A stretch of DNA of 64,000 nucleotides from Thalassobaculaceae bacterium (GCA_965228875.1 OZ245843.1:1718616-1782615); one strand, 5' to 3'; shown: positions 19,134 through 38,761, counted from the stretch's first letter. Notes: generated from the letters alone by a model not told the origin. Numbers and translations are program-made.

Positions 19134-19156
19134 GCAAACGTTGTGTTAACGTTTGC
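19134..19156. promoter_or_regulatory. Inverted repeat / CtrA-like site upstream of pentapeptide gene 1
   Basis: GCAAACGTT-gtgtt-AACGTTTGC; contains AAACGTTGTGTTAA, reading TTAA-N7-TTTG on the minus strand. Confidence 0.5.
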
Positions 19157-19212
19157 GTTGCAGGGTGGGGACACATCCGCGCGATGACACCGCAGGGGTA
19201 TGGGGCTTCCGT

Positions 19213-20466
19213 ATGACGCCGCAGCAGTTCGTCATGATCCTCCAGGAGCATGAGGCCTGGCTCACCAAGGGTCGTGGCGGCGCGCGCGCCAACCTCGCCC
19301 GCCAGAACCTCACCGGTTTCTCGCTCGAGGGGGCTCGGCTGCGGGGCGCCAAGATGTCCGGATGCGACCTGTCCCGCGCGATCCTGCAGCGCACCGATCT
19401 GTCCGAGGCGGACCTGTTCTGCGCCATCCTGGACGGGGTCGACGCCAAGAGCTGCAACCTGGAGAACGCCGACCTGCGCGGCGCCAACATCCGCAACGTG
19501 AACCTGACCGGCGCCAACCTGCGCGGGGCCGACTTCCGCGGCGGAACGCTGATGTTCGGGTCCGACAACGAGGACGGCGAGCGCGACAGCCCGACCAACA
19601 ACGAGCGCGGCGCCAACCTCTCCAACTCGGCCATGGCCAACGCGAACCTGGCCGGCGCCACGCTGTCGGGCGCCAACCTGTCGGGCGTCAACCTGCGCAA
19701 CGCCAATCTCGAAGGCGCCGATCTGAAGGGGTGCGTCCTCAGCGACGCCGACTTCTCCGGGGCCAACCTGCAGGACGCCCAGCTTCAGGGTGCCGTCATC
19801 AACAACACGGTCTTCAAGCACGCCAACCTTTCGGGGGCGAACATCGAAGGCTGCGACATGTCGTCGGCGAACCTCACCGGCGCCAACATGGTGCGCAGCG
19901 AGGACACGCTGCCGTCCGATATCCGCGACATGCTGAACAACCACTATGTCTGGATTCGCGAGGACGGCCGCCTCGGCGACCGGGCCGTTCTCGTCGGCGC
20001 CGATCTCAGCCACATCGATCTGGCCGGCGTGAACCTGTCCGGCGCCGACCTGCACACCTCCAACCTCTCCGGCGCCAACCTGGGCGAGACCCTGCTGGTC
20101 ATGTCCGACCTGGCGAAGTGCAATCTGGAGGGCGCCGAGCTGACCAAGTCGGTGATGGAGGGGGTGAACCTGTCCAATGCCAGCCTGGTCGGCGCCAACC
20201 TCCAGCAGGCCAACATCTCGCCGGTGAACCTCAAGGACAGCAAGGGCCGGCCCACCGGCCGGATGTGGCCCGCCAACCTGTCCGGCGCGAAACTCAACGG
20301 CGCCGATCTGAGCGGCGCGGATCTGCGCGGCGCCAACCTGTCCCACTGCGACCTGTCCGGAGCGCAGCTCAAGGGCGCCAACCTGGCAGGCGCGAATCTG
20401 ACCGACGCACTGGTCGACCCCGACCAGCTCGAATCCGCGCAGAACACGCAGGCGGCGGCGGTCTGA
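19213..20466 (+). CDS. Pentapeptide repeat protein (417 aa, two modules)
   Basis: Extensive A[DN]LxG repeats; HxxW..G.RA.L cap occurs twice; C-terminus QAAAV. Confidence 0.93.
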   Translation: MTPQQFVMILQEHEAWLTKGRGGARANLARQNLTGFSLEGARLRGAKMSGCDLSRAILQRTDLSEADLFCAILDGVDAKSCNLENADLRGANIRNVNLTGANLRGADFRGGTLMFGSDNEDGERDSPTNNERGANLSNSAMANANLAGATLSGANLSGVNLRNANLEGADLKGCVLSDADFSGANLQDAQLQGAVINNTVFKHANLSGANIEGCDMSSANLTGANMVRSEDTLPSDIRDMLNNHYVWIREDGRLGDRAVLVGADLSHIDLAGVNLSGADLHTSNLSGANLGETLLVMSDLAKCNLEGAELTKSVMEGVNLSNASLVGANLQQANISPVNLKDSKGRPTGRMWPANLSGAKLNGADLSGADLRGANLSHCDLSGAQLKGANLAGANLTDALVDPDQLESAQNTQAAAV

Positions 20467-20880: not shown

Positions 20881-21255
20881 ATGATGTCTAAAGTGGCCGC
20901 GCCCAACGCATCCTTCCTGACCGTCATCAGCGAACAGCTCGTCGAGCTGGTGGGGCGGGTGGAGGAAGACGTCGCGCGCTACGCCGACAGCGAGGTCGGC
21001 CCGGCCGGCGGCGGGTTCGTGATCTACTACCTGACGGACGAGAACGGTGAGCCGCTCAAGGACGTGACGGCCAAGGATCTCGGCGCGAACCTTCAGGACA
21101 TTCTCGATACCAGAGGGTTTCAACAGTTGCAGGAATTCTGCGAATCCCGGTCCCTGAAGGTTCGGGTAGATGAACATTTTTACGCCAATGATCCCCGCCC
21201 GACGAAGATCTACCGGGTGATCGTCGACGGCTGGCAGCCGGGGCCCTCGGCATGA
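20881..21255 (+). CDS. Hypothetical protein (124 aa)
   Basis: Globular-looking ORF; ATGA overlap with the downstream pentapeptide gene. Confidence 0.75.
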   Translation: MMSKVAAPNASFLTVISEQLVELVGRVEEDVARYADSEVGPAGGGFVIYYLTDENGEPLKDVTAKDLGANLQDILDTRGFQQLQEFCESRSLKVRVDEHFYANDPRPTKIYRVIVDGWQPGPSA

Positions 21256-22535
21256 GCCCAGAGCAGATCCTCAAGCTGATCGAGAGCCATGAGCGGTGGC
21301 TGCAGCGCAAGTCCGGCGGCCAGCGCGCCGACCTGTCCGGCTGCAACCTGTCGGAGTTCAACCTCACCGGCGCGACGCTCCAGTCGGCCAAGCTGTCCGG
21401 CGCCTACATGGCGCGGGCCATCCTGGTGGGCGCGGACCTGTCCTATGCGGACATGTTCTGCGCCAACCTGGACGGCGCCGACCTGTCCAAGTCTTTGCTG
21501 GTGCGCAGCGACCTGCGCGGCGCATTCATGCGCGGGGCCAATCTCGGCGGCGCCAACCTCAAGGAGGCGGATCTGCGCGGCGGCGCGCTCATCAGCGGCA
21601 ATCCGGCCGCGCCGGCGACGATCATACGCTCCAACATGGGACAGTCTGAACTCGACGAGGCGGAGCTCAACGGCGCCAATCTGTCCGGGACAGACCTCAC
21701 CCAGGCCAGCATGGTCGGCGCCACGTTGGAGAAGACGCTGCTCTGCGGCGCCAACCTGTCCGGCGTGAACCTGGAGAACGCCAACCTGCAGGGAGCCGAT
21801 CTGTCGGGCGCCAACCTGTCCGACGCCAAGATCGTGGGCGCCAATCTGGCCGGCGCCAACCTCTCGGGCGCGCTGATCCATCGCACGCAGTTGCGCAACT
21901 CCGATCTGCACGGCGCCATTCTGGAGAATGTCGACCTGTCCTCCGCCGATCTGGCCGGCGCCAATCTGGTCGGTTCCGACGGTCGCGGCCTGTCACGCTC
22001 CATGCGGGACATCCTGCGCGATCACTCCGTCTGGATCCGCGAGCAGGGTCGCGGCGGTTCGCGCGCGCAGCTCGCGAAGACAGACCTGTCCGGGATCGAC
22101 ATTTCGGACGTCAACCTGTCCGGCGCCGACCTGCGCGAGGCGCAAATGACCGGCGCCACCCTGCGGCGCACCAGTCTGGTAATGTCCGACCTGTCGGGCG
22201 CGGACCTGCGCGGCGCCGATCTCCGGGACGCGGAACTGGCGGGCATCAACCTCGCCGGCGCCGACCTTTCCGGGGCGCGCGCGGCGGGTGCAGACTTCTC
22301 CGAAGTCGAGTTGAAGGCGGCGGACGGCACGCCAACCGGCCGGATGTGGGTATCGAACCTGTCCGGAACGGACTTCGCCGACGCGGACCTGACCGGGGCG
22401 AAGCTGACCGGCGCCAACCTGAAAGGCGCCAACTTCCAGGGCGCGCGAATGGCCCGCGCGCACTTGCGCGGCGCCGACCTCGACGGCGTGACCCTGAGCG
22501 ACGAACAGCTGGCGGACGTGGCAAGCAAGCCCTGA
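21252..22535 (+). CDS. Pentapeptide repeat protein (427 aa), paralog of 19213..20466
   Basis: Same two-module architecture; shares D[LM]FCA, MSDL and PTGRMW motifs with the paralog. Confidence 0.93.
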   Translation: MSPEQILKLIESHERWLQRKSGGQRADLSGCNLSEFNLTGATLQSAKLSGAYMARAILVGADLSYADMFCANLDGADLSKSLLVRSDLRGAFMRGANLGGANLKEADLRGGALISGNPAAPATIIRSNMGQSELDEAELNGANLSGTDLTQASMVGATLEKTLLCGANLSGVNLENANLQGADLSGANLSDAKIVGANLAGANLSGALIHRTQLRNSDLHGAILENVDLSSADLAGANLVGSDGRGLSRSMRDILRDHSVWIREQGRGGSRAQLAKTDLSGIDISDVNLSGADLREAQMTGATLRRTSLVMSDLSGADLRGADLRDAELAGINLAGADLSGARAAGADFSEVELKAADGTPTGRMWVSNLSGTDFADADLTGAKLTGANLKGANFQGARMARAHLRGADLDGVTLSDEQLADVASKP

Positions 22536-22550: not shown

Positions 22551-23693
22551 CTACCAGCCGTTCCGCCTGTCCCACCAATCCGCGATCGCCTCCGAACCGC
22601 CGTCAAACACGGCATAGCGCTCAAAGGCCGCCGCGGTCATGCAGACGTGGTTGGGCAGCACACGGACACGGGCGCCGATCGGCAACCGCTCGAACAGGGC
22701 CGGGTCGGTAACAGCGACCTCGCCATGCTCCTGGTGTACGCCCCGCACGGTCAGCCCCTCAAGCGGAGCGCCGCTGCGAAGGTCGGCCAGCAGGCCGAAC
22801 CCAAGATCCCCCGCCTCGCCCAGCCCCTGTGTCGAGCGGTCCTTCGACAGGGCCAACCCTCCGGCATCGAGGATCAGAATTCCGCGCGCGCGATTGTGCG
22901 AGATGACGCTGGCGACAACCGACGCCGCGATATCGTCTATCCCGTGCGAGCCGATGCCGGCCTGGAACAGGTCTCCGAGGGTGTAAACACCGGGGCGCAT
23001 TTCGGTGACCCCGTCCAAATGGTCGGCATAGAGGGCCGTCGGGGTGGACCCCACGCTGACGATCGGGCACGGCAGGCCGGCGGACCGCAGGGCCTCCGCC
23101 GCCGCGACGGCCGCATCCCGCTCGATCGTCGCCACCGCCCGCATGTCCTGTGGCGAGCGGCCGCGGTAGGAATGGCCGGCATGGGTCAGCACGCCGGCCA
23201 GCGAGGACCGGTCGGATCCGGCGACACGGTGCGCGATGGCGAGAAGGCTCGCGCCGTCGCCGTCGATACCGGTGCGGTGCTCCCCGCAGTCGACCTCGAT
23301 GAGGACATCGTGCCGGCCCGGATGGGCGGCGACCGCCTCCGCCGCCGCCTCGCTGTCGATCAGAATCTTGAAATCGGCCCCCTGTGCCGTCAGGGCGGCC
23401 GCCCGGTCGAGTTTCGACGGGGCGATGCAGACCGCGTAGACGATATCGGAAAAGCCGTTCTCGAAGAGGTACTCCGCCTCCGCCAGGGTCGAGACCGTGA
23501 CGCCGCCCGGCTGACCGGCGGTCGCGATCCTTGCAATCTCCGCCGACTTCCCGGTCTTCATGTGCGGCCGAAGAGCGACACCCAGGGCCGCCGCCCTCGC
23601 CGACATTCTGCTGCAGTTCCGCTCCAGCCTGGCGCGATCCAGAATCAGGCACGGTGTCGGCAGGTCGTCGAGGGTCTGGGCGTCAACGCTCAC
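22551..23693 (-). CDS. Fold-type III PLP enzyme, DSD1/D-threonine aldolase family
   Basis: LPTPCLILD, LRPHMKTGK (PLP Lys), VGSTPT, EMRPGVY, QEHG, PNHVC; GTG start with AGGAGG RBS. Confidence 0.9.
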   Translation of the reverse strand: MSVDAQTLDDLPTPCLILDRARLERNCSRMSARAAALGVALRPHMKTGKSAEIARIATAGQPGGVTVSTLAEAEYLFENGFSDIVYAVCIAPSKLDRAAALTAQGADFKILIDSEAAAEAVAAHPGRHDVLIEVDCGEHRTGIDGDGASLLAIAHRVAGSDRSSLAGVLTHAGHSYRGRSPQDMRAVATIERDAAVAAAEALRSAGLPCPIVSVGSTPTALYADHLDGVTEMRPGVYTLGDLFQAGIGSHGIDDIAASVVASVISHNRARGILILDAGGLALSKDRSTQGLGEAGDLGFGLLADLRSGAPLEGLTVRGVHQEHGEVAVTDPALFERLPIGARVRVLPNHVCMTAAAFERYAVFDGGSEAIADWWDRRNGW

Positions 23694-23736
23694 GGTCTTC
23701 TCCTCCTGAATGTCGCCTCCGGTCCGGCCGGCGCCG

Positions 23737-24630
23737 TCACAGCGGGGCGACGATCTCGTAGCGCCCGCCGTCTCGTCGAACCAGCGCGCCGCGGTGCTGA
23801 TGGGCCTGGGCAACGGCCTGCCGGATACGGTCTCGGGTCGGCACGCTCTCGATGCGGATACCGAAGCCCGCCTCCAGGTCGCGTCGCCCCGCCTCGTCCA
23901 GGGTCCGCAGGAACTCGATCGCCGTCTCGTTGCCTTCGACCTTCGCCTCGGCGTCCAGACCGGGCGGGACCGCCAGATTGTAGCGGTCGTACTGAGCGGC
24001 ATGGGTCAGCCGGTAATGATAGAGCGCCCGGGCGAGCCAGACCAGGGTATAGGGCCGGCTGATCAGGGCCTGGGAGAAGAACACGTCGTGCACCCGGCGC
24101 AGGTCATGGGGCACGCGCTTCCAGTCCTCGACATGGGCAAGCGCGCGGCCGGCCAGCGCCAGTCCACTCGCCGGCATGAAATTGTAGAAGGTGCCGCCGA
24201 TCTGCCGCGCCGATCCGTGCGCCCAGATGCCGATATGCTGGCCGGTCAGATTGCGCGCCGGCCGCATGTCCCGGTCGTAATAGGCATGCGGCACCGAGAG
24301 CACCTCGGCACCGACCTTCTCGCGGGCGCGGACCAGGCTGGCGACGAAGTCCCCCTCTATCCGGTCGTCGGCATCGACATAGACCACCATCTCGAAGCCG
24401 TTGCGTACCGCCCAGGCGCCGGCCACGGCGCGCGGGGTCCCTCCGCTGTCGTTGGACGCTTCGGGCAGGCTCATGTGCACGCGCCCGTCGCCGTCCAGCG
24501 TATCGTGGCGCACACCGTCGCCCACCAGAATGTGGGTCGCGGGATGCGTCTGCGCCGCCACGGAATCGGCCATGGCTCGGATCCAGGCTTCCTGCTCCCC
24601 GTGATAGGGCGTGATGACGGCGACCTTCAC
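23737..24630 (-). CDS. Glycosyltransferase family 2-like protein
   Basis: VAVITPY, HILVGDG, YVDADD DxD motif. Confidence 0.75.
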   Translation of the reverse strand: MKVAVITPYHGEQEAWIRAMADSVAAQTHPATHILVGDGVRHDTLDGDGRVHMSLPEASNDSGGTPRAVAGAWAVRNGFEMVVYVDADDRIEGDFVASLVRAREKVGAEVLSVPHAYYDRDMRPARNLTGQHIGIWAHGSARQIGGTFYNFMPASGLALAGRALAHVEDWKRVPHDLRRVHDVFFSQALISRPYTLVWLARALYHYRLTHAAQYDRYNLAVPPGLDAEAKVEGNETAIEFLRTLDEAGRRDLEAGFGIRIESVPTRDRIRQAVAQAHQHRGALVRRDGGRYEIVAPL

Positions 24631-24653
24631 AGCCGACTCTCCGTTCGTGGTTC

Positions 24654-25601
24654 TCAGGCCACCCGGTGCAGGAGATCGCGGCCGTCGCGCAGCCGGTTGA
24701 TGTTGTCCGCGGCGACGGCGAGGCTGCGCTCCAGCGTGCCGAGCGTGAAGAACGCCACATGCGGCGCGACGACGACATTGTCCAGCGCAAACAGCGGGTT
24801 TCCGGCGGGCGACGGCTCCTCGGCGAAGACGTCCAGCCCGGCGCCCATGAGCTTGCCCGAGGCCAGCGCGGCGGCGAGCGCCTCCTCGTCCACCAACGGA
24901 CCGCGCCCCGTGTTGACGAGGATCGCGCCCGTCTTCATCTGGGCCATGGCGTCGCGGTCGAGCCAGTGATGGGTCTCCGGCACCAGCGGTATGTGCAGCG
25001 ACACGATGTCCGACTCCGCCAGCAGCGTCGCCTTGTCGACCCAGGCCGGATTGGCCGGATCCGGCTCGCCCCGCTTGGTGAAGATGACCCGCGCGCCCAT
25101 GGCGGTCAGCACGGGTTCCAGCAGCTTCGGCACCGCGCCGTATCCCACCAGCCCCACGGTCCGCCCGGCGATCTCGCCGAGGGTGTCCTGCATCGCCGGC
25201 GGCCAGCCCCAGCCCTCGCCCCGCACCGTACGGGCGTGGAACACCGGCAGACGGCGCAGGCAGGCCAGCATCAGCAGGAGCGTCATCTCCGAGACGGCCT
25301 GGCTGTTAGTGCCCGGCATATTGCACACCGCCACGCCTCGGGCCTTCGCCGCCTCCAGGTCGATGGTGTTCACGCCGACGCCGATCTTCTGCACCAGTTT
25401 GAGACGCGGCGCGGCCGCGAGATGCTCCTCGGCCACCGGTTCCAGGTTGTGCAGCAGCACGTCGGTGTCGGCGATCTGCTCCAGGAAGCCCTCGTGATCC
25501 CGCTCCGAACAGATCGCGACCCGGACATCCTCCTCCCGCGCCAACCGGCTCAGTCGGTCACGCAGCCACGGGCCGACATCGTAGTGATAGAGCACCTTCA
25601 T
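24654..25601 (-). CDS. D-isomer-specific 2-hydroxyacid dehydrogenase
   Basis: GVGVNTIDL, GLVGYGAV, SLHIPL, NTGRG, LDVFAEEP, PHVA. Confidence 0.93.
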   Translation of the reverse strand: MKVLYHYDVGPWLRDRLSRLAREEDVRVAICSERDHEGFLEQIADTDVLLHNLEPVAEEHLAAAPRLKLVQKIGVGVNTIDLEAAKARGVAVCNMPGTNSQAVSEMTLLLMLACLRRLPVFHARTVRGEGWGWPPAMQDTLGEIAGRTVGLVGYGAVPKLLEPVLTAMGARVIFTKRGEPDPANPAWVDKATLLAESDIVSLHIPLVPETHHWLDRDAMAQMKTGAILVNTGRGPLVDEEALAAALASGKLMGAGLDVFAEEPSPAGNPLFALDNVVVAPHVAFFTLGTLERSLAVAADNINRLRDGRDLLHRVA

Positions 25602-25612
25602 CGCATCGTTTC

Positions 25613-26902
25613 CTATGCTTTGCCCCAAGGAAAGGCACTGCGCGGCGGCAACACCGCCCCGGTCGGCACGGCTTCGGCCAACCGCAGCCCCTCGTTCCAT
25701 TTCGCCATGCGCTCCGAGCGGGTGAAGGACCCGACCTTGAGCTGGGGAATACCCCAGCCGACGCCGAGATGGACGATGGTGACATCCTCCGTCTCGCCCG
25801 AGCGCGCCGAAACGATGGCGCCCCAGCCCTTCGCCCGCGCCGTCTCCAGCGCCTCCCAAGTCTCGGTCAGCGTACCGATCTGGTTGGGCTTGATAAGAGC
25901 CGTATTCCCGGCCCCCACCGCCGAACAGTGGGCGATGCGGGCGGCATTGGTCGTCACCAGGTCGTCGCCGACGATCTGCACGCCCTTCGGCGCGGCCGCG
26001 GTGAACCGGGCGAAAGCATCCTCGTCATCCTCGCCCAGCGGATCCTCGATCGAGACCACAGGATAGCGCGCCAGCCAGCCCAGGAGCATCTCGCTCAGCC
26101 CGTCGCCATCGATCTCGCGGCCATCCCGCGCCAGGGTGTAGCGACCGCCGGAGCCGAAGTCGGACGCGGCGATATCCAGGGCGATCGCCACATCGTCGCC
26201 CGGCACGTGGCCGGAGCTTTCGATCGCCCGTAGAAGACAGTCGAGCGCCTCCTCGTTGCTGTCGAAGGCCGGCCAGAAACCACCCTCGTCCGCAACGCCC
26301 TGGAGTTTGCCCGCATCGGCCAGGATCCGACCGGCCGCCCGGTAGACATCCGCCGTCCAGTCCAGCGCCGTCGGATAGTCCGGCGCGCCGACGGCGATCA
26401 CCATGAAATCCTGGACGTCGACCCGCCTCGCCGCGTGCGCGCCGCCGCCCAGGATCTGGATCTCCGGCAGCGGCAACGGTCCCGGCGCGCGGTCGGCGGC
26501 CAGGTGGCGCCACAGCGGCACGCCGGCCGAGGCGGCGGCGGCATGGGCCAGCGCCATCGACGTCGCGATCAGGGCATTGCCGCCAAGCCGGGACTTGTCA
26601 CCGGTTCCGTCCAATTCCACCAGCGCGCGGTCGATATCGGCCTGATCCGACACCGGCCGGCCCCGGAGCGCGGCGGCGATCTCGCCGTTCACCGATGCGA
26701 CGGCGCCCTGCACATCCATCCCGCCGAACGCCGCGCCGCCGTCGCGCCGATCCAGTGCCTCCCCGGAACCGGTCGAGGCGCCGGCCGGAGCGATGGCCCG
26801 GCCGGAGGCACCGCCGACGGTCCGGATCTCCACCTCCACCGTGGGTCGGCCACGGCTGTCCCATACCCTGCGGCCGATCACCGCATCGATCGTGTCGCTC
26901 AT
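25613..26902 (-). CDS. Enolase paralog with divergent active site
   Basis: DSRGRPTVE, GASTG, DEGG, DIAAS, IEDP, GDDL, IKPNQIG, LKVG, RSER; SHRSGET reads SARSGET and QEFM reads QDFM. Confidence 0.88.
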   Translation of the reverse strand: MSDTIDAVIGRRVWDSRGRPTVEVEIRTVGGASGRAIAPAGASTGSGEALDRRDGGAAFGGMDVQGAVASVNGEIAAALRGRPVSDQADIDRALVELDGTGDKSRLGGNALIATSMALAHAAAASAGVPLWRHLAADRAPGPLPLPEIQILGGGAHAARRVDVQDFMVIAVGAPDYPTALDWTADVYRAAGRILADAGKLQGVADEGGFWPAFDSNEEALDCLLRAIESSGHVPGDDVAIALDIAASDFGSGGRYTLARDGREIDGDGLSEMLLGWLARYPVVSIEDPLGEDDEDAFARFTAAAPKGVQIVGDDLVTTNAARIAHCSAVGAGNTALIKPNQIGTLTETWEALETARAKGWGAIVSARSGETEDVTIVHLGVGWGIPQLKVGSFTRSERMAKWNEGLRLAEAVPTGAVLPPRSAFPWGKA

Positions 26903-27924
26903 CGCGCTCCATCCCGTTCTTGCAGGCGTTCCGCCCAGTCGTCCTTGAGCGTCGGCAGGTCCTTCGGCGGCGCCTTGAGCCAACGGACGGCCGCCTCGCG
27001 CACCCGCGCCTTGTCACGCGCGTCGGTCAGGTATTCGACGGGCGACTTGCCGTCGACCCGCGCCAGGAACAGTCCGGGCAGCAACGCGGCCACCCGACCT
27101 TCCAGATCCTGCGCATCCTCCCAGTCGACCCGCGCCATGTAGGCGGTGGCCAGGGCCTCGAAACACCGTAGGAACCCCGCTGCCGTAGCCGGCACCCACA
27201 GGCACTTGAGCAGCAGATGGTTGAGGCAGAACGCCAGATCGAAGGCCGGCTCGCCCCACCAGGCGCATTCGGCGTCCAGAAAGACCGGGCCGCCGGGGCC
27301 GACCTGAATGTTTTTCGGGCTGACATCGCCGTGAACCAGACAGAGCCTGGTCTGTGCCGTGCGGGCGACCAGCGCCGCCAGTTCGCCCGCCACCTCCGGA
27401 CGCGCACGGGCGGCCGCCTCCAAATAGGGTTCCAGGCGGATGGCGTGAAAAATCGCATCGGTCGGGAACCGCGCCGCGAGATCCGGCTGGGCGGCCGTCG
27501 CCGCATGGATCCGGCCGAGCCGGTCGCCGACCGCATGGGCCACGGCCGGATCGGCGACCCCCGCGGCGAGGTCCGCCTTCCAGAGCCGGTGGTCGGAGGG
27601 ATCGAGCCATGCCATGGCGAACAGACCGGCCTTCGGATCGTGTCCGAGGATCTCGGGGACCGCTTGCGGGACCGCATGGCCCGCCGCCTCGAACCAGGCA
27701 ACCTCGTAGTCGTTGCGCACCACCGGCGCTCGCCAGTCGGCGGCCACCTTCAGTTTGGCCAGCGCGCGCTTCACGCAGAACGCGCCACGCGCCGCATCGA
27801 CCCGCCAGATGTCGGACGCGACCCCGCCGGTCAACGCCGTCGCCACCGGCACTTCCCCGACGCCGACCAGTCCGAGCCGGCGCAGCGAGGCGAGAACCTC
27901 GTCGGGCAGTTTCTCCACGCTCAT
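26899..27924 (-). CDS. APH/methylthioribose-kinase-like phosphotransferase
   Basis: LTGGVASDI, VKRAL, HGDVSPKN (Brenner motif), LDAEC..G.PAFD. Confidence 0.85.
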   Translation of the reverse strand: MSVEKLPDEVLASLRRLGLVGVGEVPVATALTGGVASDIWRVDAARGAFCVKRALAKLKVAADWRAPVVRNDYEVAWFEAAGHAVPQAVPEILGHDPKAGLFAMAWLDPSDHRLWKADLAAGVADPAVAHAVGDRLGRIHAATAAQPDLAARFPTDAIFHAIRLEPYLEAAARARPEVAGELAALVARTAQTRLCLVHGDVSPKNIQVGPGGPVFLDAECAWWGEPAFDLAFCLNHLLLKCLWVPATAAGFLRCFEALATAYMARVDWEDAQDLEGRVAALLPGLFLARVDGKSPVEYLTDARDKARVREAAVRWLKAPPKDLPTLKDDWAERLQERDGAR

Positions 27925-28412
27925 GACTGCAGATCCCGGGTCATGAGTTGAACCTGCTTGCCGCCGGCCGTCTGGGTTCCGGCGGGCCGAAACCCGAGTC
28001 GCTCGTGAAACCGCAGCGATCCCGGGTTCGGCGGGTCGAGGTTGACCTCGCAGGCGAGCCGGGCAACGCCGAACACTCTCGCCGCCGCCTCGAAATCGGC
28101 ATAGAGCGCGGCGCCGATCCCCTCGCCCCTGAGCGTGGGAGCAACGACCACGCGATCGACGTACAGAAAGCTGTCGAACGCCCGCTCGAACCAGCGGTAG
28201 TTCTCGCTGTCATATGGACGTCCGGGCTGCAGGGCGATCAGAAGCGCGCACGGGTCACCGGCCGGTCCGACCACCCGAAACAGGTCGGCCATGGCGGCAA
28301 ACGCGGCGAAATCGTCTTCGGTCAGTGCGTTCACCGCCGGAACGGCGGCATTGTTCAGGGCTACCAGCGCAGCGAAGTCGCCGGTTTCGGCATCTCGGAT
28401 CGTCATCGTCAT
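27921..28412 (-). CDS. GNAT family acetyltransferase
   Basis: YDSENYRWF, YVDRVVV..RGEGIG, CEVN..PPN..SLRFH. Confidence 0.88.
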   Translation of the reverse strand: MTMTIRDAETGDFAALVALNNAAVPAVNALTEDDFAAFAAMADLFRVVGPAGDPCALLIALQPGRPYDSENYRWFERAFDSFLYVDRVVVAPTLRGEGIGAALYADFEAAARVFGVARLACEVNLDPPNPGSLRFHERLGFRPAGTQTAGGKQVQLMTRDLQS

Positions 28413-29428
28413 TCCGTCCGGCGGCCGCGCGCCACCCCTCCCCGTCCCCCGCGCCGTCGCGGCGCCGGGATGTTTCTTCCCAGCATCGTCAGCACGGGAG
28501 AAATGTCCACCGGGAGAATTGCACGATCGATATGCGCCAGAGGATCGAGCGGCAGGGTCTGAAGCGCGGCTCGGGCCATCTCGGCGCCGCCGAGGCGCGC
28601 CGCCACCTCTACACCGAGCGCTCCGTATCCACCGACCAGCGCCGCCAGGGAACCGTGTCTGGGGATGTCCCCGACGGTTTCGGCATAGACGGAGAAGACA
28701 CAGGCTGGGCCGGGGCCGGCCTCGATGAGCCCGGCGGCCTGAACGGCCGCCCTCACCCTGTCATCGACCGACTCACCGGCAAGGGCGTCGACCAGCCCGG
28801 TGACGCCGGGACCGGGATCATCGCTTGCATTGACCGCGTCGAGCACCAGAGCCGCCACCGCGGAAGAGCGATCGTCGCCCTCCGGCGTCGGGCAGTAAGC
28901 GGCCCTCTGCGGCCGCAAGGCCCCATCGCGCAGGAGGACAGGGCAACCGCGATCGTCGATAAAGATCGTCGCGCCCGCCAGGGCGGCGATCGCCTCGAGA
29001 TCCTCGGCCACGGCCAGGAAAGGCGCCGCCAGACGCGGATCGATCGCGTCCCGATCGCCGGCCAGTTCGACGAGCGGACGGCGCTGACCGGTCATCAGGG
29101 CGGTAAGTTTGGCGAGTTCGACCGCATCCGCCCCGCCGCAGGCCACCACCGCCTGACAGTGATCGAAATGAAAGGCACCGACAGCCTCCGCCACCGATGC
29201 GGCACTGCGCCCTCCCCGATGGTCGACGGGAAACACGGCCAGGCCGGCGGCCTCGATCCGGGTGACCAGCGCGTCCCGGTCGGCGATCGCCTCCGCCGAG
29301 CCGTCGCGGATGAGCAGGAGCCGGTTCAAACCACGGGCGCGTGCCCAGGATCGTATGGCCTCCTCCGCCGTTTCACCGGTCCGCATGGGCACGACACCGC
29401 CCCAGGTCGTCCGCACGAGTGACTGCAC
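28409..29428 (-). CDS. Degenerate iron-containing alcohol dehydrogenase-like protein
   Basis: N-terminal Rossmann-like part and VVACGGADAVELAK corresponding to GGGSxxDxAK; metal ligands not evident; start uncertain. Confidence 0.55.
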   Translation of the reverse strand: MQSLVRTTWGGVVPMRTGETAEEAIRSWARARGLNRLLLIRDGSAEAIADRDALVTRIEAAGLAVFPVDHRGGRSAASVAEAVGAFHFDHCQAVVACGGADAVELAKLTALMTGQRRPLVELAGDRDAIDPRLAAPFLAVAEDLEAIAALAGATIFIDDRGCPVLLRDGALRPQRAAYCPTPEGDDRSSAVAALVLDAVNASDDPGPGVTGLVDALAGESVDDRVRAAVQAAGLIEAGPGPACVFSVYAETVGDIPRHGSLAALVGGYGALGVEVAARLGGAEMARAALQTLPLDPLAHIDRAILPVDISPVLTMLGRNIPAPRRRGGRGGVARGRRTE

Positions 29429-29814: not shown

Positions 29815-29842
29815 AGAAAAGCGCGCCGACGGATCGGCGCGC
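29815..29842 (-). terminator. Intrinsic terminator for the XRE regulator
   Basis: GCGCGCCGA-cgga-TCGGCGCGC stem with adjacent A-run on the plus strand. Confidence 0.65.
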
Positions 29843-29871
29843 CCATATTCATTTCGTCGGTTGCGGGAAGA

Positions 29872-30345
29872 CTACTTCTCTTCCGGCAGCGCCGTGGCGA
29901 CCGACTTCACCATCTCGGTGATCCGCTTGCGCAGGTTCGGGTTCTTGATCGAGTAGTACGCGCGCACCAGTTCGAGGGTCTCACGACGGGCCATCGGGTC
30001 CGTCGGATTCTCCTCATACTCGTCGCGGGCCTGGCCGGACTTCATGCGGCGCGGGGAGTGCGCCATGGTCTCGTCCGACATATCGTCGAAGAAGAAGCTT
30101 ACCGGAACGTCCAGGATCTGCGCGATATCCCACAGCCGCGAGGAACTGATGCGGTTGCTGCCGCGCTCGTACTTCTGGACCTGCTGGAACGTGATGTTCA
30201 GCGCCTCGCCAAGCTGCTCCTGGCTCATGCCAAGCAACGTGCGACGCAGACGCACCCGACGGCCGACATGGACGTCGATCGGGTTGTTGTTCGTGATCTG
30301 ATAGTTAGGATCGTCACGACGTTTATCGAGTTTGGCTTTAGCCAT
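29872..30345 (-). CDS. XRE-family HTH transcriptional regulator (conserved alphaproteobacterial type)
   Basis: PIDVHVGRRVRLRR..GMSQEQLG..ITFQQVQKYERGSNR; RRETLELVRAY. Confidence 0.92.
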   Translation of the reverse strand: MAKAKLDKRRDDPNYQITNNNPIDVHVGRRVRLRRTLLGMSQEQLGEALNITFQQVQKYERGSNRISSSRLWDIAQILDVPVSFFFDDMSDETMAHSPRRMKSGQARDEYEENPTDPMARRETLELVRAYYSIKNPNLRKRITEMVKSVATALPEEK

Positions 30346-31880: not shown

Positions 31881-32765
31881 ATGCAACAGTCATTGCCGTC
31901 GTACGACAAGCGAGACATGGCCCGGCTGTTCCGCGAGCGGCTGGAGACGGCGATGGAGCGGGCGGGTCTGTCGCGCTCGGCCGTCGCCCGTCGCATCGCG
32001 GTGGACCGCTCGACCCTGTCGCAGATTCTCTCCGATGATGGGGTGCGCCTGCCGCGGGCCGACACGGTGGCCGCCCTGGCGATGACGCTGCAGGTGTCGC
32101 TCGACTGGCTCCTCGGGCTCGCAGAAGAGGGCCAGTTCACCGCCGACATCATGGAACGGTCGCCGGAGATCAGCCCGCACAACCGCACCGAGGTCGACGA
32201 GAACCTGCTGCGGTGGCACGCCGAGGCGGCGGGATACAAGATCCGCTACGTACCGAGCAGCCTGCCGGACCAGGTGGCCATCCCCGAGGTGAGCGCCTTC
32301 GAGTACCTGGAGACCGGAGCCGAAAGCGCCGATCAGGCGATTCGCCGGTCGCGCGACCGCCTCGACTACGTCCGCCAGCCCGAGACCGACGTCGAAATCT
32401 GCACCTCGGTCCAGTCGCTGCGCGACTTCGCCGACGGCAGCGGCGTGTGGCGCGACCTGACCTTCGAGGTCCGGCGCAGACAGCTTACCCACATCGCCGA
32501 CCTGATCGACGAATTGTACCCGAGCGTGCGCTGGTATCTGTTCGACGGCGTACGCGACTACGCCATTCCGGTCACCATCTTCGGCCCCAAGCGGGCGGCG
32601 ATCTACGCCGGCAACATGTACATCGTCTTCACGACCACCGAGCATATCCGGGTTCTGACCCGACGTTTCGACGATCTGATCCGCCGGGCCGTGGTGCATG
32701 CCCACGAGATCCCGGCCTTCGCCCGCACACTGATCGACAGCATGGACTCCGGGAGACCCGCATGA
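31881..32765 (+). CDS. XRE-family HTH regulator with long C-terminal domain
   Basis: LSRSAVARRIAVDRSTLSQIL..LPRADT..VSLDWLLG; divergent from the desaturase. Confidence 0.88.
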   Translation: MQQSLPSYDKRDMARLFRERLETAMERAGLSRSAVARRIAVDRSTLSQILSDDGVRLPRADTVAALAMTLQVSLDWLLGLAEEGQFTADIMERSPEISPHNRTEVDENLLRWHAEAAGYKIRYVPSSLPDQVAIPEVSAFEYLETGAESADQAIRRSRDRLDYVRQPETDVEICTSVQSLRDFADGSGVWRDLTFEVRRRQLTHIADLIDELYPSVRWYLFDGVRDYAIPVTIFGPKRAAIYAGNMYIVFTTTEHIRVLTRRFDDLIRRAVVHAHEIPAFARTLIDSMDSGRPA

Positions 32766-33571
32766 CCGCCATCGCCGCCTTGACCATGTACGATCTGCCG
32801 GAGCTGCGGGCCGCCACGGACACGTGGTGGACCACCGTCGCCGGCCACCTCGCCGCCGCCGGCATCGCGGAGGTCCCCAACGCTCTCACCCGTGGCCGCC
32901 CGGTGGCCGAGAACTGGCGGGACCCGGGTCTGCTGCTGACACAGACTTGCGGCTACCCCCTCACCCACAGCCATGCCGATGACCTGACGGCGATCGCCGC
33001 CCCTGACTATCGGGCGGAAGGCTGCGGCGGCGGCTTCTACAGCAGCGCCTTCCTGGTGCGCGGCGACGATCCGGCGGAAACGCTGGGCGATCTTCGCGGA
33101 CGCCGGGCGGCCGCAAACGGCCCCGACAGCCAGTCCGGCTGCAACGTGCTCCGCGCCGCCGTCGCCCCCCTGGCAGACGGCGCCAGCTTCTTCGGACAGG
33201 TGACGTGGAGTGGCGCCCACCGGCAGAGCCTCGCGCTGGTTCGAGACGGCGAGGCCGACATCGCGGCGATCGACGGGGTGACCTTCGCGCTGGTCGGCGA
33301 CGTCGCCCCGAAGGAGGTCGAAGGCCTGCGGGTGCTGGGATGGAGCGCGAGAACGCCGGCGCTCCCCTACGCCGTCCGCAGGACGCTTGACGCCGTCACC
33401 CGCGACCGGGTCCGCGCCGCGTTGTATGCCGCCGCGGACGACCCCGCCGGTGCCGCCGCGCGTCGCACCCTCAGGCTCGACGGGTTCCGCGCAATGGACG
33501 ATGGCGACTACGCAGTGATGGTGGAGATGCGGCACACCGCCGAGCGGCTGGGCTATCCGGAACTGGCGTGA
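32762..33571 (+). CDS. PhnD/SsuA-like substrate-binding-fold protein lacking a signal peptide
   Basis: QTCGYP, YSSAFLV, NGPDSQSG, SGAHRQS, ADIAAID; ATGA overlap with the regulator. Confidence 0.82.
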   Translation: MTAIAALTMYDLPELRAATDTWWTTVAGHLAAAGIAEVPNALTRGRPVAENWRDPGLLLTQTCGYPLTHSHADDLTAIAAPDYRAEGCGGGFYSSAFLVRGDDPAETLGDLRGRRAAANGPDSQSGCNVLRAAVAPLADGASFFGQVTWSGAHRQSLALVRDGEADIAAIDGVTFALVGDVAPKEVEGLRVLGWSARTPALPYAVRRTLDAVTRDRVRAALYAAADDPAGAAARRTLRLDGFRAMDDGDYAVMVEMRHTAERLGYPELA

Positions 33572-33574
33572 AGG

Positions 33575-34756
33575 TCAGCGCGCAGCCAGGATCGCGCGGG
33601 CGAGGTCGAGCAGTTCGTCATCGTCGGGGCGGACCGCGTTGTTGTCGATCATCGGCCGGTTCTCCGGTGCCATGGCGATTGTGACCAGACGGGGCGCGTC
33701 CCGCTCGCTCAGCGGTGTATCGTCAAGCGAGACCGGCAGTCCGACGGCACGCACCAGGGCCTCGAACCGCTCGGCCCCGGCCAGGGCAAGCTCGGTCGTA
33801 TCCGCGGTCGAGCGCGGGTCGATGCCGAGCGCCGTCGCCACCGGGGCATAGAGATCGGGCCGCCGGACCGCGGACCAGGGCAGGGTCACCCGCATGGACA
33901 GCGCCACCGCCCGGCCGTGATGGACGTGGGCGAGGGTGCCGAGCGCGTGACCGAAGGCATGGGCGATACCGGTGCCGCAGGCGTCGATCGCGACACCCGC
34001 CAGGGCCGAGCCGAGCGCCATGCGACCGCGCGCCTCGACGTCGCCGGGCGCCGCCACCGCCCGCTCCAGGTTGGCCGCGACCAGGGCGACTGCCTGCAGC
34101 GCCATGCCGGCCACTACCGGGGTCGAGCGGACATGGGTATAGGCCTCGATCGCGTGCACGAGGGCGTCGAGGCCGGTCGCCGCCGTCAGCGGCGCCGGCA
34201 GGCCGAGCGTCATCGCCGGGTCCAGAATGGACAGATCGGCCTTGAGGCGGCTGCCCCAGGCCCAGACCTTGCGCCCGCCGTCGAGGCCGTAGACCGACGT
34301 CCGGGTCATCTCGGCGCCGGTGCCCGATGTCGTGGGAATGAGGATCTTCGGGATCGACCGGTTCGGCAGCGGCGTCGCAAGGACGGCATAGGCCGATGCG
34401 GGCGCATCGGACACGGCAACCGAGGCCGCCAGCTTGGCGACGTCGAGCGCCGATCCGCCGCCGATCCCCAGTATCAGGTCCGCGCGATGCGTACGGGCGC
34501 GCAGCGACGCCGCGTCGATCGACGCCGCCGTCGGGTCGCTTTCGATCTCGTCGAAGAGTTCCACCGCCATGCCGGCCGCGGCAAGACGCTTGGACACGGC
34601 ACCGGGGATACCGGTGGCGACCACGCCGGGATCGGTGACCAGCAGGATCCGTGCGCCCGGCCCGCACAGCGTCGCCACGTCCTCCGGGAGGGCGCCAACC
34701 CTGTCGAGCCCGTAGCTCATGGCCGGGCTCGGCTCATGGGTGAAAGCGGACAGCAT
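33575..34756 (-). CDS. Iron-containing alcohol dehydrogenase
   Basis: GIGGGSALDVAK, PTTSGTGAE, DALVHAIE, AHAFGH, HHG; GGAGG RBS. Confidence 0.92.
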   Translation of the reverse strand: MLSAFTHEPSPAMSYGLDRVGALPEDVATLCGPGARILLVTDPGVVATGIPGAVSKRLAAAGMAVELFDEIESDPTAASIDAASLRARTHRADLILGIGGGSALDVAKLAASVAVSDAPASAYAVLATPLPNRSIPKILIPTTSGTGAEMTRTSVYGLDGGRKVWAWGSRLKADLSILDPAMTLGLPAPLTAATGLDALVHAIEAYTHVRSTPVVAGMALQAVALVAANLERAVAAPGDVEARGRMALGSALAGVAIDACGTGIAHAFGHALGTLAHVHHGRAVALSMRVTLPWSAVRRPDLYAPVATALGIDPRSTADTTELALAGAERFEALVRAVGLPVSLDDTPLSERDAPRLVTIAMAPENRPMIDNNAVRPDDDELLDLARAILAAR

Positions 34757-38749: not shown

Positions 38750-38761
38750 GGCCGGTCCGCC

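Follow-up and report, generated by a model that had tools for sequence, protein, structure and literature searches.

A conserved bacterial module of an APH/MtnK-like kinase, an enolase paralog and a 2-oxoacid reductase with a putative role in feeding a hydroxy acid into central metabolism

Introduction

The glycerate branch of the serine cycle, of the glycerate pathway and of the non-phosphorylative Entner-Doudoroff pathway contains a hydroxypyruvate reductase, a glycerate 2-kinase (MOFRL/GckA or GarK type) and an enolase. Three classes of glycerate kinases are described in PMC2063504. APH-fold kinases that are paired or fused with an eliminating enzyme are represented by LxmK with the lanthipeptide dehydratase LxmY and by ACAD10/11, whose kinase domains are assigned to 4-hydroxy acids in PMC12440821.

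In this study, a stretch of 64,000 nucleotides from Thalassobaculaceae bacterium (GCA_965228875.1, OZ245843.1:1718616-1782615), hereafter the window, was analyzed. It contains an operon in which a kinase of the APH family is followed by a second, remodelled enolase and a 2-hydroxyacid dehydrogenase (2HADH). No description of a kinase-enolase-reductase module was found in the literature searched, in agreement with the first-pass annotation of this DNA, where no described pathway had been recognized.

Gene Organization of the Locus

Seven consecutive ORFs were found on the minus strand (Table 1). Three of the junctions have the sequence ATGA with overlaps of 4 nt (28409-28412, 27921-27924 and 26899-26902), and downstream of the overlapping genes the spacing is 11, 23 and then 43 nt; the layout proposed earlier was thus confirmed by the ORF coordinates and by reading of the junctions. 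The GC content at the third codon position is 0.77-0.91 in the seven frames, and that of the window is about 69%. A convergent pentapeptide-repeat gene, which ends at position 22535, is located 3' of the operon. The HTH protein encoded upstream is 95-99% identical in eight related loci and keeps its position beside the operon in close relatives. As had been noted in the first-pass annotation, the usual neighbours of a housekeeping eno gene are absent: none was found among 20 annotated flanking ORFs at 8-40 kb.

Table 1. Features of the operon and of its upstream flank (positions in the window)
Feature	Position	Strand	Characteristics
D-threo-3-hydroxyaspartate dehydratase / D-serine dehydratase family PLP enzyme	22551..23693	-	380 aa, GTG start
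Protein labelled 'GT2', sporadic insertion	23737..24630	-	297 aa, GTG start
D-isomer-specific 2-hydroxyacid dehydrogenase, putative 2-oxoacid (hydroxypyruvate-type) reductase	24654..25601	-	315 aa
Enolase paralog, core member	25613..26902	-	429 aa from ATG at 26902; Enolase_N + Enolase_C
APH/MtnK-like small-molecule kinase, core member	26899..27924	-	341 aa; PF01636 (APH) 50.5 bits (cut-off 23.2 bits)
GNAT acetyltransferase	27921..28412	-	163 aa; PF00583 38.2 bits
Fe-ADH-like protein	28409..29428	-	339 aa, GTG start; PF00465 33.6 bits (cut-off 31.3), residues 17-140
Terminator-like hairpin	29819..29844	-	11-pair stem and T-rich tail; consensus match only; between the upstream HTH gene and the operon
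XRE-type HTH protein	29872..30345	-	PF01381 52.5 bits; upstream of the operon

The earlier view of all seven genes as one pathway was not supported by the comparison of 80 related loci. The Fe-ADH-like, GNAT, 'GT2' and hydroxyaspartate-dehydratase-like genes are found beside the core in just 10, 12, 3 and 12 of them, respectively, and all loci with any of these genes are of the Thalassobaculaceae type. The four outer genes are Thalassobaculaceae-specific additions to the core.

The first-pass family labels of the kinase, the enolase, 2HADH and GNAT were retained; those of the other three proteins need qualification. Only the N-terminal half of the Fe-ADH-like protein is recognizable, its C-terminal domain (PF25137) was not detected, and the single PDB match was a methanol dehydrogenase (E 2e-4); the gene is fast-evolving, with 32-50% identity between loci. 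The label 'GT2' was not supported, as the match to Glycos_transf_2 (19.9 bits over 34 residues) is under the Pfam cut-off of 23.3; the search gave no NCBIfam match and no meaningful PDB match. The DSD1-type protein was attributed more precisely to the relatives of D-threo-3-hydroxyaspartate dehydratase (Ala_racemase_N 88.5 bits, D-ser_dehydrat 73.3 bits; 309.7 bits with 3wqc over the full length, residues 6-380). Its identity between loci is just 52-55%, and its role may be to feed in related hydroxy-amino acids of the C3/C4 type.

Elsewhere in the window (33575-34762), a full-length Fe-ADH carrying both PF00465 and PF25137 is encoded.

Conservation of the Module

In 76 of the 80 related loci, the kinase gene is immediately followed by the enolase paralog on the same strand; of the four exceptions, three are due to contig ends and one to a partial copy. 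2HADH is a frequent third member and adjoins the pair in 47 loci. In the order of the window's bacterium, the kinase was found in 16 of 63 genomes and the paralog in the identical 16, where the kinase-adjacent second enolase scores 424-456 bits (in genome G048, it is present as two lower-scoring pieces). A second enolase of the paralog type is absent from the other 47 genomes of the order. In a class-wide sample, the kinase was present in 37 of 401 genomes, with two enolase matches in 33 of the 37, and in 25 of 29 newly found loci the paralog was adjacent to the kinase. A housekeeping enolase is present in every module-bearing genome examined.

Natural fusions were also found. Among the 120 long relatives listed (of 138 with E<=1e-30), 93 are kinase-enolase fusions and one has the order enolase-kinase; one is a 2HADH-kinase fusion, two are ketopantoate-reductase-kinase fusions, ten combine mannonate dehydratase (PF03786; 324-343 bits in two checked) with the kinase and one combines it with an SMP-30 lactonase. 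In two loci (L137 and L139) the order is ketopantoate reductase (KPR)-enolase-kinase, so that a non-homologous reductase is found in place of 2HADH.

The kinase and the paralog therefore co-occur in other genomes, as seen from their adjacency, the matched presence in the order and the fusions. The same evidence strongly supports the earlier proposal of a joint action of the kinase, the paralog and 2HADH on a 2-oxo/2-hydroxy/2-phospho acid. These three genes are a conserved unit, a widespread and often fused bacterial module.

Analysis of the Core Proteins

The kinase was attributed to the APH family by its score, the ATP-binding lysine, the HGDxxxxN catalytic loop and the metal motif; residues K52, H198-G199-D200...N205 and D217-x-E219 are invariant in 32 relatives. 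Its one other Pfam match was a weak similarity to fructosamine kinase, and the Pfam search revealed no match to the known glycerate kinase families PF02595 (class I) and PF05161 (class II, MOFRL). Assignment as a 5-methylthioribose kinase was rejected (TIGR01767 46.5 bits, cut-off 275). Modeling using AlphaFold led to a model with pLDDT of 95.5, which is closest in fold to 5-methylthioribose kinases (TM 0.76-0.82, identity 15-17%); the sole PDB sequence match was 2pyw (E 7e-9). LxmK is among the closest folds, and antibiotic kinases (macrolide, amicoumacin, corramycin) are frequent among the APH-fold neighbours of the model.

Both domains of 2HADH were found (PF02826, 2-Hacid_dh_C, 169.8 bits; PF00389, 90.3 bits). 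None of the NCBIfam equivalog cut-offs was reached (best scores: PGDH 185.9 bits, cut-off 454; PRK06487 185.1, cut-off 448; glyoxylate reductase 181.5, cut-off 455), and the closest PDB entries are the PGDH 1wwk and the glycerate dehydrogenase/glyoxylate reductase 2cuk.

The paralog belongs to the enolase family (TIGR01060 427.8 bits, cut-off 300; Enolase_N 148 bits, Enolase_C 251.1 bits) and is not the sole eno of the genome. A separate canonical copy is present elsewhere with a TIGR01060 score of 658.9 bits, and its identity to the paralog in the alignment is 48%. Housekeeping copies score 635-690 bits. All 124 kinase-linked enolases compared, a set in which some genes are represented twice, retain residues H156, E206, D243, E286, D313, K338, R367 and K389. 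D243, E286, D313, K338, K389 and E206 align with those of the canonical copies, and we take them to be the three metal-binding carboxylates, the catalytic lysine (yeast K345) and the counterparts of K396 and E211; the R367-S368 motif is also kept. Judging by these residues, the catalytic core of enolase is retained in the paralog.

The C3-hydroxyl site is altered. The window's paralog has Asp165 and Ala366, the pair is Asp/Ala in all 124 kinase-linked enolases, and the Glu and His found in four canonical copies are replaced; presumably, these positions correspond to yeast E168 and H373 at this site. Two subtypes of the paralog were distinguished, both with invariant Asp/Ala, and subtype 1 has the further changes S40A, N152G, P160R, A210W, V339P and T383W.

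Genomic Context and Proposed Function

The three enzymes could form a funnel in which a substrate is reduced, phosphorylated and subjected to elimination. A D-specific 2-oxoacid reductase (2HADH here, a ketopantoate-reductase-like enzyme in other lineages) would produce a D-2-hydroxy acid, the MtnK-like kinase would phosphorylate it with ATP as a donor, and the paralog would form an enol phosphate by removing the proton from C2 and the leaving group from C3. Most likely, the module serves for the entry of glycerate, or of a hydroxy acid similar to it, into central metabolism. Its most likely route, for which we would give slightly less than even chances, is from hydroxypyruvate via D-glycerate and 2-phospho-D-glycerate to PEP, by means of a kinase family in which glycerate kinases are not known. 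We infer here which acid is used, which of its hydroxyls receives the phosphate and which way the flux runs. On this view, the kinase would add an APH-fold type, the fourth, to the glycerate 2-kinases and would have a dedicated enolase as its partner; the module would gather the glycerate released in the routes of sugar acids, ketose 1-phosphates, glyoxylate and serine.

Entry at the level of glycerate is indicated by several independent contexts. Locus L130 contains, in this order, an aldose 1-epimerase, a mannonate dehydratase-kinase fusion, the paralog, a 2,4-didehydro-3-deoxy-rhamnonate hydrolase-type hydrolase and an SDR. In PMC6336799, a dehydrogenase-plus-hydrolase route is described that cleaves 2-keto-3-deoxypentonate to pyruvate and glycolate; by analogy, a hexonate would yield pyruvate and glycerate in L130. 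Two loci (L156 and L157) have the order ketohexokinase, lyxose/mannose isomerase, an ORF without a known family, aldehyde dehydrogenase, kinase and paralog, and another (L127) has DctPQM, kinase, paralog, 2HADH and LacI. In genome G447 (L123), a kinase-2HADH pair was found without the paralog; this genome has the canonical enolase only and neither class I nor class II glycerate kinase. It was also found that eight kinase-positive genomes contain no MOFRL glycerate kinase and that PF02595 is missing from all eight.

Other observations argue against glycerate. The MOFRL-type kinase was found in 29 of 37 kinase-positive genomes, versus 190 of 401 overall, and the window's genome has one MOFRL gene elsewhere and no PF02595 gene; thus, there is no general complementarity with the module kinase. 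This overlap in most kinase-positive genomes and the very heterogeneous flanking genes do not favour glycerate. The invariant Asp/Ala pair would be unexpected for the plain conversion of 2-phosphoglycerate. The housekeeping enolase could use ordinary 2-phosphoglycerate, so it would be difficult to see why the two genes are so tightly coupled and why 93 fusions exist. In addition, the MtnK enzymes, to which the kinase model is structurally closest, act on the anomeric hydroxyl of a sugar and not on a hydroxy acid. The earlier suggestion of a substrate other than glycerate was not established: the contexts favour glycerate, and the active-site changes argue in the opposite way.

A serious alternative, of somewhat lower probability, is that the reaction logic is the same and the acid is another one. 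The kinase would make the 2-phosphate of a D-2-hydroxy acid with a larger or different C3 group, for example a C4 acid sugar (erythronate or threonate), tartrate or (S)-3-sulfolactate, and the remodelled enolase, by expelling water or the C3 group, would form PEP or a PEP homologue inaccessible to the housekeeping enolase. The Asp/Ala pair common to both subtypes, the invariant subtype 1 residues Arg160, Trp210, Pro339 and Trp383 and the close coupling and frequent fusion of the two genes are consistent with this, as is the redundancy of the module beside a MOFRL glycerate kinase and a canonical enolase in most genomes. The neighbourhoods also include DUF1537-type short acid-sugar kinases after 2HADH (seven loci), PdxA-family dehydrogenases (four loci) and adjoining carboxylate transporters, namely TctCBA (L016), DctPQ(M) (L039, L053, L121 and L127) and a DauA-like SulP (L056, L057 and L061). 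Kinase fusions to mannonate dehydratase and lactonase and, in the window's operon, the gene related to an enzyme of a C4 hydroxy-amino diacid speak for the same possibility. However, the contexts converge on no single alternative acid, sulfite-handling or tartrate-specific genes do not recur, and phosphorylated candidate compounds were not found in the literature searched. Further enzymes would be required for a PEP homologue, whereas many loci consist of the kinase and paralog genes only. Moreover, G447 does without the paralog, and in L130 a conventional aldonate dehydratase is already encoded next to the pair.

It is improbable that the kinase acts like a KDG kinase on the distal hydroxyl of an aldonate or 2-keto-3-deoxy acid, with the paralog as a phospho-aldonate dehydratase or as the enzyme of a pre-kinase step. 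The ten listed mannonate dehydratase fusions, the lactonase fusion, the sugar-acid dehydratases and SDRs beside the pair (L131, L122 and Inquilinus-type loci) and the sugar kinase fold shared with MtnK would agree with this. However, the paralog keeps R367, S368, H156 and the three metal ligands, to which we ascribe the binding of the carboxylate and the 2-phosphate in canonical enolase, and the commonest partners are 2-oxoacid reductases rather than aldolases.

Tartronate-semialdehyde phosphate and phosphonate enolase inhibitors are potent. A protective role of the module has a still lower probability. The paralog would serve as a bypass enolase insensitive to inhibitors, and the kinase would inactivate a toxin that targets enolase or would clear a toxic analogue (for example, giving tolerance to tartronate-semialdehyde phosphate as a side product of glycerate-analogue phosphorylation). 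The changes at the C3-hydroxyl site, presumably a site of inhibitor contacts, the antibiotic kinases among the fold neighbours, the GNAT gene adjoining the kinase in the window and the variable context fit this role; against it, the module is consistently linked and fused to 2-oxoacid reductases and embedded in operons for transporters or sugar acids, has no mobile-element association, and no gene cluster for the biosynthesis of such an inhibitor was found.

Enolase homologues take part in phosphinothricin biosynthesis, and in L049 the module is immediately preceded, on its own strand, by genes of a PEP mutase-nucleotidyltransferase fusion (TIGR02320, 391 bits) and a phosphonopyruvate decarboxylase (421 bits), while the weak best matches of GNAT are arsinothricin/phosphinothricin acetyltransferases (23-29 bits, far under the cut-offs); nevertheless, the supply of PEP or a modified enol phosphate for a phosphonate or other natural-product pathway is very unlikely, since this arrangement was found in 1 of about 150 loci examined, no PEP mutase adjoins the module in the window and the majority of contexts are catabolic.

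Comparison with Known Systems

Taking the glycerate route as the preferred reading, the module resembles the glycerate branch in its series of enzymes (a 2-oxoacid reductase of D-specificity, a kinase using ATP and a member of the enolase family), with PEP as the predicted product and contexts that produce glycerate. It differs in its kinase, the APH/MtnK fold of which is outside the three classes described in PMC2063504, and in its enolase, a dedicated Asp/Ala paralog that is often fused to the kinase. The paralog shares both domains, the metal ligands, both lysines, E206, H156 and R367-S368 with canonical enolase (TIGR01060) but is lower-scoring, carries the E-to-D and H-to-A changes and is always kinase-linked. 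MtnK is the nearest solved fold to the kinase, and both have a DxE-type metal motif; however, the identity is low, the partners MtnA and MtnB are absent, and the partner of the module kinase is an enolase, acting on carboxylic acids. LxmK/LxmY and ACAD10/11 share with the module the pairing or fusion of an APH-fold kinase with an eliminating enzyme. In those systems the phosphate is the leaving group, whereas the retained phosphate site of the enolase suggests that in the module it would stay on the product as an enol phosphate.

Operon layout and gene identities

The seven co-oriented open reading frames on the minus strand, described in the first-pass annotation as an operon at 22551–29428, were found exactly there, with four-nucleotide overlaps in the form of ATGA stop/start junctions at 28409–28412, 27921–27924 and 26899–26902, followed by gaps of 11, 23 and 43 nt. 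The third-position GC content of the called frames was 0.77–0.91, as expected of real genes at the approximately 69% GC of the window. Gene families were assigned using Pfam and NCBIfam scans. The GT2 identity that had been proposed for the sixth gene could not be retained, its score being sub-threshold. The APH-family kinase and the enolase paralog, often accompanied by the D-2-hydroxyacid dehydrogenase (2HADH), are referred to below as the module.

Features of the operon and its surroundings in the window
Feature	Position	Strand	Remarks
Pentapeptide-repeat protein	19153–20466	+	437 aa; tandem with the next
Pentapeptide-repeat protein	21252–22535	+	427 aa; convergent with the operon
PLP enzyme, relative of D-threo-3-hydroxyaspartate dehydratase (DSD1 family)	22551–23693	-	full length, 309.7 bits to 3wqc
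"GT2" label	23737–24630	-	19.9 bits, sub-threshold
D-2-hydroxyacid dehydrogenase	24654–25601	-	Pfam/NCBIfam scans
Two-domain enolase (paralog)	25613–26902	-	TIGR01060, 427.8 bits (cut-off 300)
APH-family kinase	26899–27924	-	best specific match MtnK, 46.5 bits (cut-off 275)
GNAT	27921–28412	-	Pfam/NCBIfam scans
Fe-ADH-like	28409–29428	-	match limited to residues 17–140, 33.6 bits
Terminator-like hairpin	29844–29819		after an XRE-type HTH gene
ORF with a phosphonate-binding-protein domain (PF12974, residues 246–433), together with the adjoining full-length Fe-ADH gene	32213–34762		ORF probably over-extended
suhB/mmgR sRNA match (RF00519, alphaproteobacterial)	36517–36589	+	42.7 bits (gathering score 41)
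Glyceraldehyde-3-phosphate dehydrogenase paralog (Gp_dh_N + Gp_dh_C), together with the preceding MFS transporter gene	37478–39847	-	about 8 kb from the operon

The operon is bordered on one side by the convergent pentapeptide-repeat gene and on the other by the hairpin. Both tandem pentapeptide-repeat proteins are 76–92% conserved beside the operon in Thalassobaculaceae-type loci. Upstream of the module, an Rfam search of eight loci at the gathering threshold revealed no RNA element, riboswitches included, the sole match being a TPP riboswitch far downstream in one locus (L027). An E-value scan of the window between 20000 and 41000 likewise found no such element there, its only matches being the suhB/mmgR sRNA of the table and two sub-threshold ones. 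The glyceraldehyde-3-phosphate dehydrogenase paralog, which immediately follows an MFS transporter gene in the same orientation, is a second paralog of a glycolytic enzyme in an unusual context. The ORF with the phosphonate-binding-protein domain adjoins a full-length two-domain Fe-ADH, and the same region carries genes for two fatty-acid desaturases and for two XRE regulators.

Conservation of the module

A scan of species-representative genomes located kinase relatives in 521 stretches, and the best 80 of them were compared as loci. Core-gene counts were taken from tblastn because neighbouring genes had been called heuristically from the GC-frame, with shadow ORFs arising on the opposite strand. 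These 80 loci belong mostly to Rhodospirillales- and Acetobacteraceae-type alphaproteobacteria, the closest being titled Thalassobaculum or Thalassobaculaceae, and include single loci labelled Vicinamibacterales, Nitrosovibrio, Lacunisphaera and Mycobacteriaceae. The paralog subfamily was also found in loci labelled Acidobacteriota, Verrucomicrobiota, Actinomycetota and Betaproteobacteria.

In 76 of the 80 loci the enolase paralog came immediately after the kinase in the same orientation. Among the four others, L055 contains a partial copy, and in L021, L075 and L081 a contig or locus end lies next to the kinase (in L021, solely upstream of it). The 2HADH was present in 47 loci, in 45 of them on the same strand. 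The GNAT (12/80), DSD1-family (12/80), Fe-ADH-like (10/80) and "GT2" (3/80) genes were confined to Thalassobaculaceae-type loci, across which the identity of the DSD1-family (52–55%) and Fe-ADH-like (32–50%) genes was low. Of the seven-gene pathway suggested in the first-pass annotation, the kinase–paralog core with the 2HADH as its usual partner is thus upheld, and the other four genes are not.

That the kinase and the paralog occur together in other genomes was confirmed both by this adjacency and within the window's order, where 16 of 63 genomes contain the kinase (E ≤ 1e-30), each with a low-scoring enolase beside it; such an enolase is absent from the remaining 47. When the class was sampled evenly, the kinase was found in 37 of 401 alphaproteobacterial genomes (29 of 294 genera), and 33 of these 37 gave two enolase matches. 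Two of the exceptions are contig truncations (G222, G378) and two have the canonical copy alone (G431, G447). Two enolase matches were also present in ten kinase-negative genomes; in the two of these for which scores are listed, both copies are of the canonical type (681–685 bits). In the newly fetched loci of this sample, the paralog was adjacent to the kinase in 25 of 29 cases. The enolase-match tallies, like those for glycerate kinases below, include two genomes flagged as unpublished (G268, G094), and no claim depends on either.

Several irregular copies were observed. In a genome of the window's genus (G048:C1:3486912–3488157), the paralog lies in two overlapping pieces (222 and 185 bits) beside an intact kinase, which could reflect a pseudogene with a frameshift or a fault in the assembly. 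One in-frame TGA was found in each of the kinase matches of L089, L090 and L111 (genomes G067, G200 and G222); these could be broken genes, sequencing errors or cases of read-through. Two single-contig genomes of 1.5 Mb with the window's genus label (G041, G042), which is shared by genomes of 4.6–5.6 Mb, are presumably reduced and contain neither the kinase and paralog nor a MOFRL-type glycerate kinase.

Remodelling of the enolase paralog

Few enzymes are as strongly conserved as enolase, and few members of its family are known to have any other role. The 4.96-Mb genome encodes a separate canonical enolase elsewhere on the chromosome (a second TIGR01060 match, 658.9 bits), to which the window paralog is 48% identical; the paralog is therefore neither the only enolase gene nor the housekeeping one. 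Within the order, housekeeping enolases score 635–690 bits and the second class 424–456 bits.

Residues were surveyed in 128 full-length enolase matches from all loci, comprising 4 canonical and 124 kinase-linked sequences, the latter including genes fetched twice (e.g., L107/L114 and L105/L127). Asp165 and Ala366 (window numbering) were found in 124/124 kinase-linked enolases, and Glu and His in the 4 canonical ones. In the yeast enzyme the equivalent residues would be E168 and H373, both in contact with the C3 hydroxyl. Residues H156, E206, D243, E286, D313, K338, R367 and K389, which presumably bind metal, phosphate and carboxylate or serve as general base and acid, were kept in all 124. 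Because the core residues are kept and the C3-hydroxyl positions are changed, the paralog looks like an enzyme that would still make an enolate from a 2-phospho acid and handle the C3 side differently.

The paralogs fall into two subtypes. That of the window, found in the order kinase–enolase, has the additional invariant residues A40, G152, R160, W210, P339 and W383. The second is more divergent (43–48% identical), does not contain these extra changes and mostly stands in the order enolase–kinase.

Kinase fold and fusion proteins

Modeling of the kinase using AlphaFold with 32 relatives as input led to a confident model (pLDDT 95.5), whose nearest solved folds are 5-methylthioribose kinases (TM 0.76–0.82, 15–17% identity), followed by PsiK and the lanthipeptide kinase LxmK. 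The sole PDB sequence match was the Arabidopsis MTR kinase (E 7e-9). Database names for the family are generic, and the ESM Atlas gives generically named phosphotransferase clusters.

Among proteins of 598–2000 residues, 138 matched the kinase at E ≤ 1e-30, and architectures are listed for 120 of them. The listed proteins comprise 93 kinase–enolase fusions in which the gene order is kept, one enolase–kinase fusion, one 2HADH–kinase fusion (P0237) and 25 proteins in which BLAST recognised another partner domain or none. According to precomputed Pfam assignments and a check of 16 proteins, these 25 include ten with a mannonate dehydratase (UxuA) domain ahead of the kinase (two verified, 324–343 bits), two with a ketopantoate-reductase (ApbA) domain in that position, one with an SMP-30 lactonase domain and one with a 3-hydroxyacyl-CoA-dehydrogenase-type domain. 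One of the 93 kinase–enolase fusions (P0228) carries an ApbA fragment ahead of the start of the enolase domain. Of ten fusion proteins looked up in clusters, one came from a Burkholderiaceae MAG. Apparent kinase–enolase fusions in long open frames of six close loci were rejected as out-of-frame stop-free stretches; the real fusions occur in other lineages.

In two metagenome loci (L137, L139), the gene order is ketopantoate-reductase-like gene, enolase paralog, kinase. Here a non-homologous enzyme with the same stereochemical preference has taken the place of the 2-oxoacid reductase, its family being one that gives a D-product. Together, the linkage, the fusions and this exchange of reductases show a single short pathway made up of a D-2-oxoacid reductase, the kinase and the paralog. 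Given the retained enolase core, the intermediate is most likely a 2-phospho acid, from which an enol phosphate would most likely be formed.

Genomic contexts

The genes flanking the module are highly heterogeneous, which fits a small self-contained funnel and not one long pathway. Recurring themes are carboxylate uptake, sugar-acid enzymes and routes expected to release glycerate. Uptake is represented by TctCBA directly upstream of the module (L016), by DctPQM, kinase, paralog, 2HADH and LacI in this order (L127), by DctPQ(M) (L039, L053, L121) and by a DauA-like SulP (L056, L057, L061). Inquilinus-type loci and L057 contain, in this order, GntR, L-arabinonate dehydratase, SDR, AraD1/GguC, SDR, kinase and paralog; further downstream in the Inquilinus loci there is an aldehyde dehydrogenase nearest to 2,5-dioxovalerate/alpha-ketoglutarate-semialdehyde dehydrogenases, below the cut-off. 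L131 has the order SDR, enolase-superfamily dehydratase, GntR, kinase, paralog, SDR, and L129 contains a lactonase.

In L130, aldose 1-epimerase, a mannonate dehydratase–kinase fusion, the paralog, a hydrolase and an SDR lie on one strand. The hydrolase is most similar to 2,4-didehydro-3-deoxy-L-rhamnonate hydrolase, whose cut-off of 500 it misses with 340 bits. A dehydrogenase-plus-hydrolase route that cleaves 2-keto-3-deoxypentonate to pyruvate and glycolate is described in PMC6336799; by analogy, we infer that like chemistry on a hexonate would yield pyruvate and glycerate in L130. In L156/L157, the order ketohexokinase, lyxose/mannose isomerase, unassigned ORF, aldehyde dehydrogenase, kinase, paralog suggests a route from a ketose-1-phosphate via glyceraldehyde to glycerate. 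The nearest structures to the commonest partner, 2HADH, are PGDH and glycerate dehydrogenase/glyoxylate reductase; one genome (G447) contains a kinase–2HADH pair and the canonical enolase alone. L122 was rejected as a glyoxylate-carboligase context, since its TPP enzyme better matched PRK07064 (744 bits) and its dehydrogenase 3-hydroxyisobutyrate dehydrogenase (388.6 bits).

Other neighbours were also recorded. GNAT-domain genes adjoin the kinase in lineages distant from the window (L143:5126–6175, a type-2 module, and L125:3995–5749, a GNAT–RimK fusion), an echo of the window, in which the GNAT gene and the start of the kinase overlap. A class I/II aminotransferase adjoins the kinase–enolase pair in L119, L120, L121, L055 and L078, divergently in L119–L121, and may supply a 2-oxo acid from an amino acid. 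In one locus (L049:5007–7893, plus strand), a PEP mutase–nucleotidyltransferase fusion and phosphonopyruvate decarboxylase lie directly upstream of kinase–enolase–2HADH on the same strand.

Proposed function and alternatives

The acid would be glycerate, which the contexts favour. The module would then convert hydroxypyruvate/D-glycerate via 2-phosphoglycerate to PEP with a new class of kinase, a reading to which we give a little short of an even chance. A single MOFRL-type (class II, PF05161) glycerate kinase gene and no class I (PF02595) gene were found in the genome of the window. In the class sample, MOFRL was present in 190 of 401 genomes overall and in 29 of the 37 kinase-positive ones; there is therefore no general complementarity. 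The remaining 8 kinase-positive genomes also have no class I gene; six of them come from two families with MOFRL in 0/4 sampled genomes. There the module is perhaps the sole outlet for glycerate; genome size and lifestyle confound this comparison.

The first-pass annotation had proposed a substrate other than glycerate. The contexts speak against this, and three observations speak for it: the Asp/Ala pair is universal in the kinase-linked enolases, a dedicated enolase is tightly coupled to the kinase, and the module is redundant with the MOFRL kinase and the housekeeping enolase. All three would follow naturally were the acid one that a normal enolase cannot handle, such as a four-carbon acid sugar, tartrate or (S)-sulfolactate, a serious alternative that we consider less likely than glycerate. 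Neighbouring genes point the same way: 7 loci have DUF1537-type kinases and 4 have PdxA, dicarboxylate carriers also occur, and the window has the hydroxyaspartate-dehydratase-like gene. Put as a mechanism, and with similar doubt, the paralog would have given up 2-phosphoglycerate as its substrate, and the kinase would make the 2-phosphate of another D-2-hydroxy acid, from which a new elimination by the Asp/Ala-remodelled enolase would lead to PEP or a PEP homologue. There is a realistic chance that the module represents new enolase chemistry.

Sulfolactate was kept only as one such candidate. It had been suggested by sulfur-related neighbours, namely a ComB-like phosphatase (L066), SulP, CysZ and luciferase-like monooxygenases. 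Of these, the SulP proved closest to DauA, a dicarboxylate carrier, the monooxygenases belong to the NtaA/F420 type and not to SsuD, and a molybdoenzyme neighbour could not be assigned to sulfite dehydrogenase. Speculatively, glycerate and the remodelled residues could be reconciled if the paralog were tuned to resist inhibitory side products of the phosphorylation of glycerate analogues.

Phosphorylation of a distal hydroxyl by the kinase is a lesser alternative, set against the retained enolase core. A protective bypass and a biosynthetic supply of PEP are likewise lesser ones, the latter indicated by the PEP mutase and phosphonopyruvate decarboxylase genes of L049 alone.

Comparison with known systems

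Full-text literature on enolase paralogs, this gene combination, APH-type glycerate kinases and the hypothetical phospho-acids was searched, a body of text that lies outside most subscription journals; no description of the module was found in it, in agreement with the first-pass annotation. The paralog represents a large, tightly defined enolase subfamily, always linked or fused to an uncharacterised kinase, and the fused proteins are ready targets for assay and structure work. Either substrate outcome corrects the annotation "phosphopyruvate hydratase"/"aminoglycoside phosphotransferase" in thousands of genomes. Three classes of glycerate kinase are on record (PMC2063504); should the kinase prove to be a glycerate 2-kinase, it would add a fourth, unrelated class and fill the glycerate-kinase gap in lineages without classes I and II. 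With another acid as substrate, the enolase chemistry and the catabolic route would both be new. About one-tenth of the sampled alphaproteobacterial genomes would then possess an iron-sulfur-free alternative, with recycling of ATP, to known acid-sugar dehydratases or sulfo-lyases.
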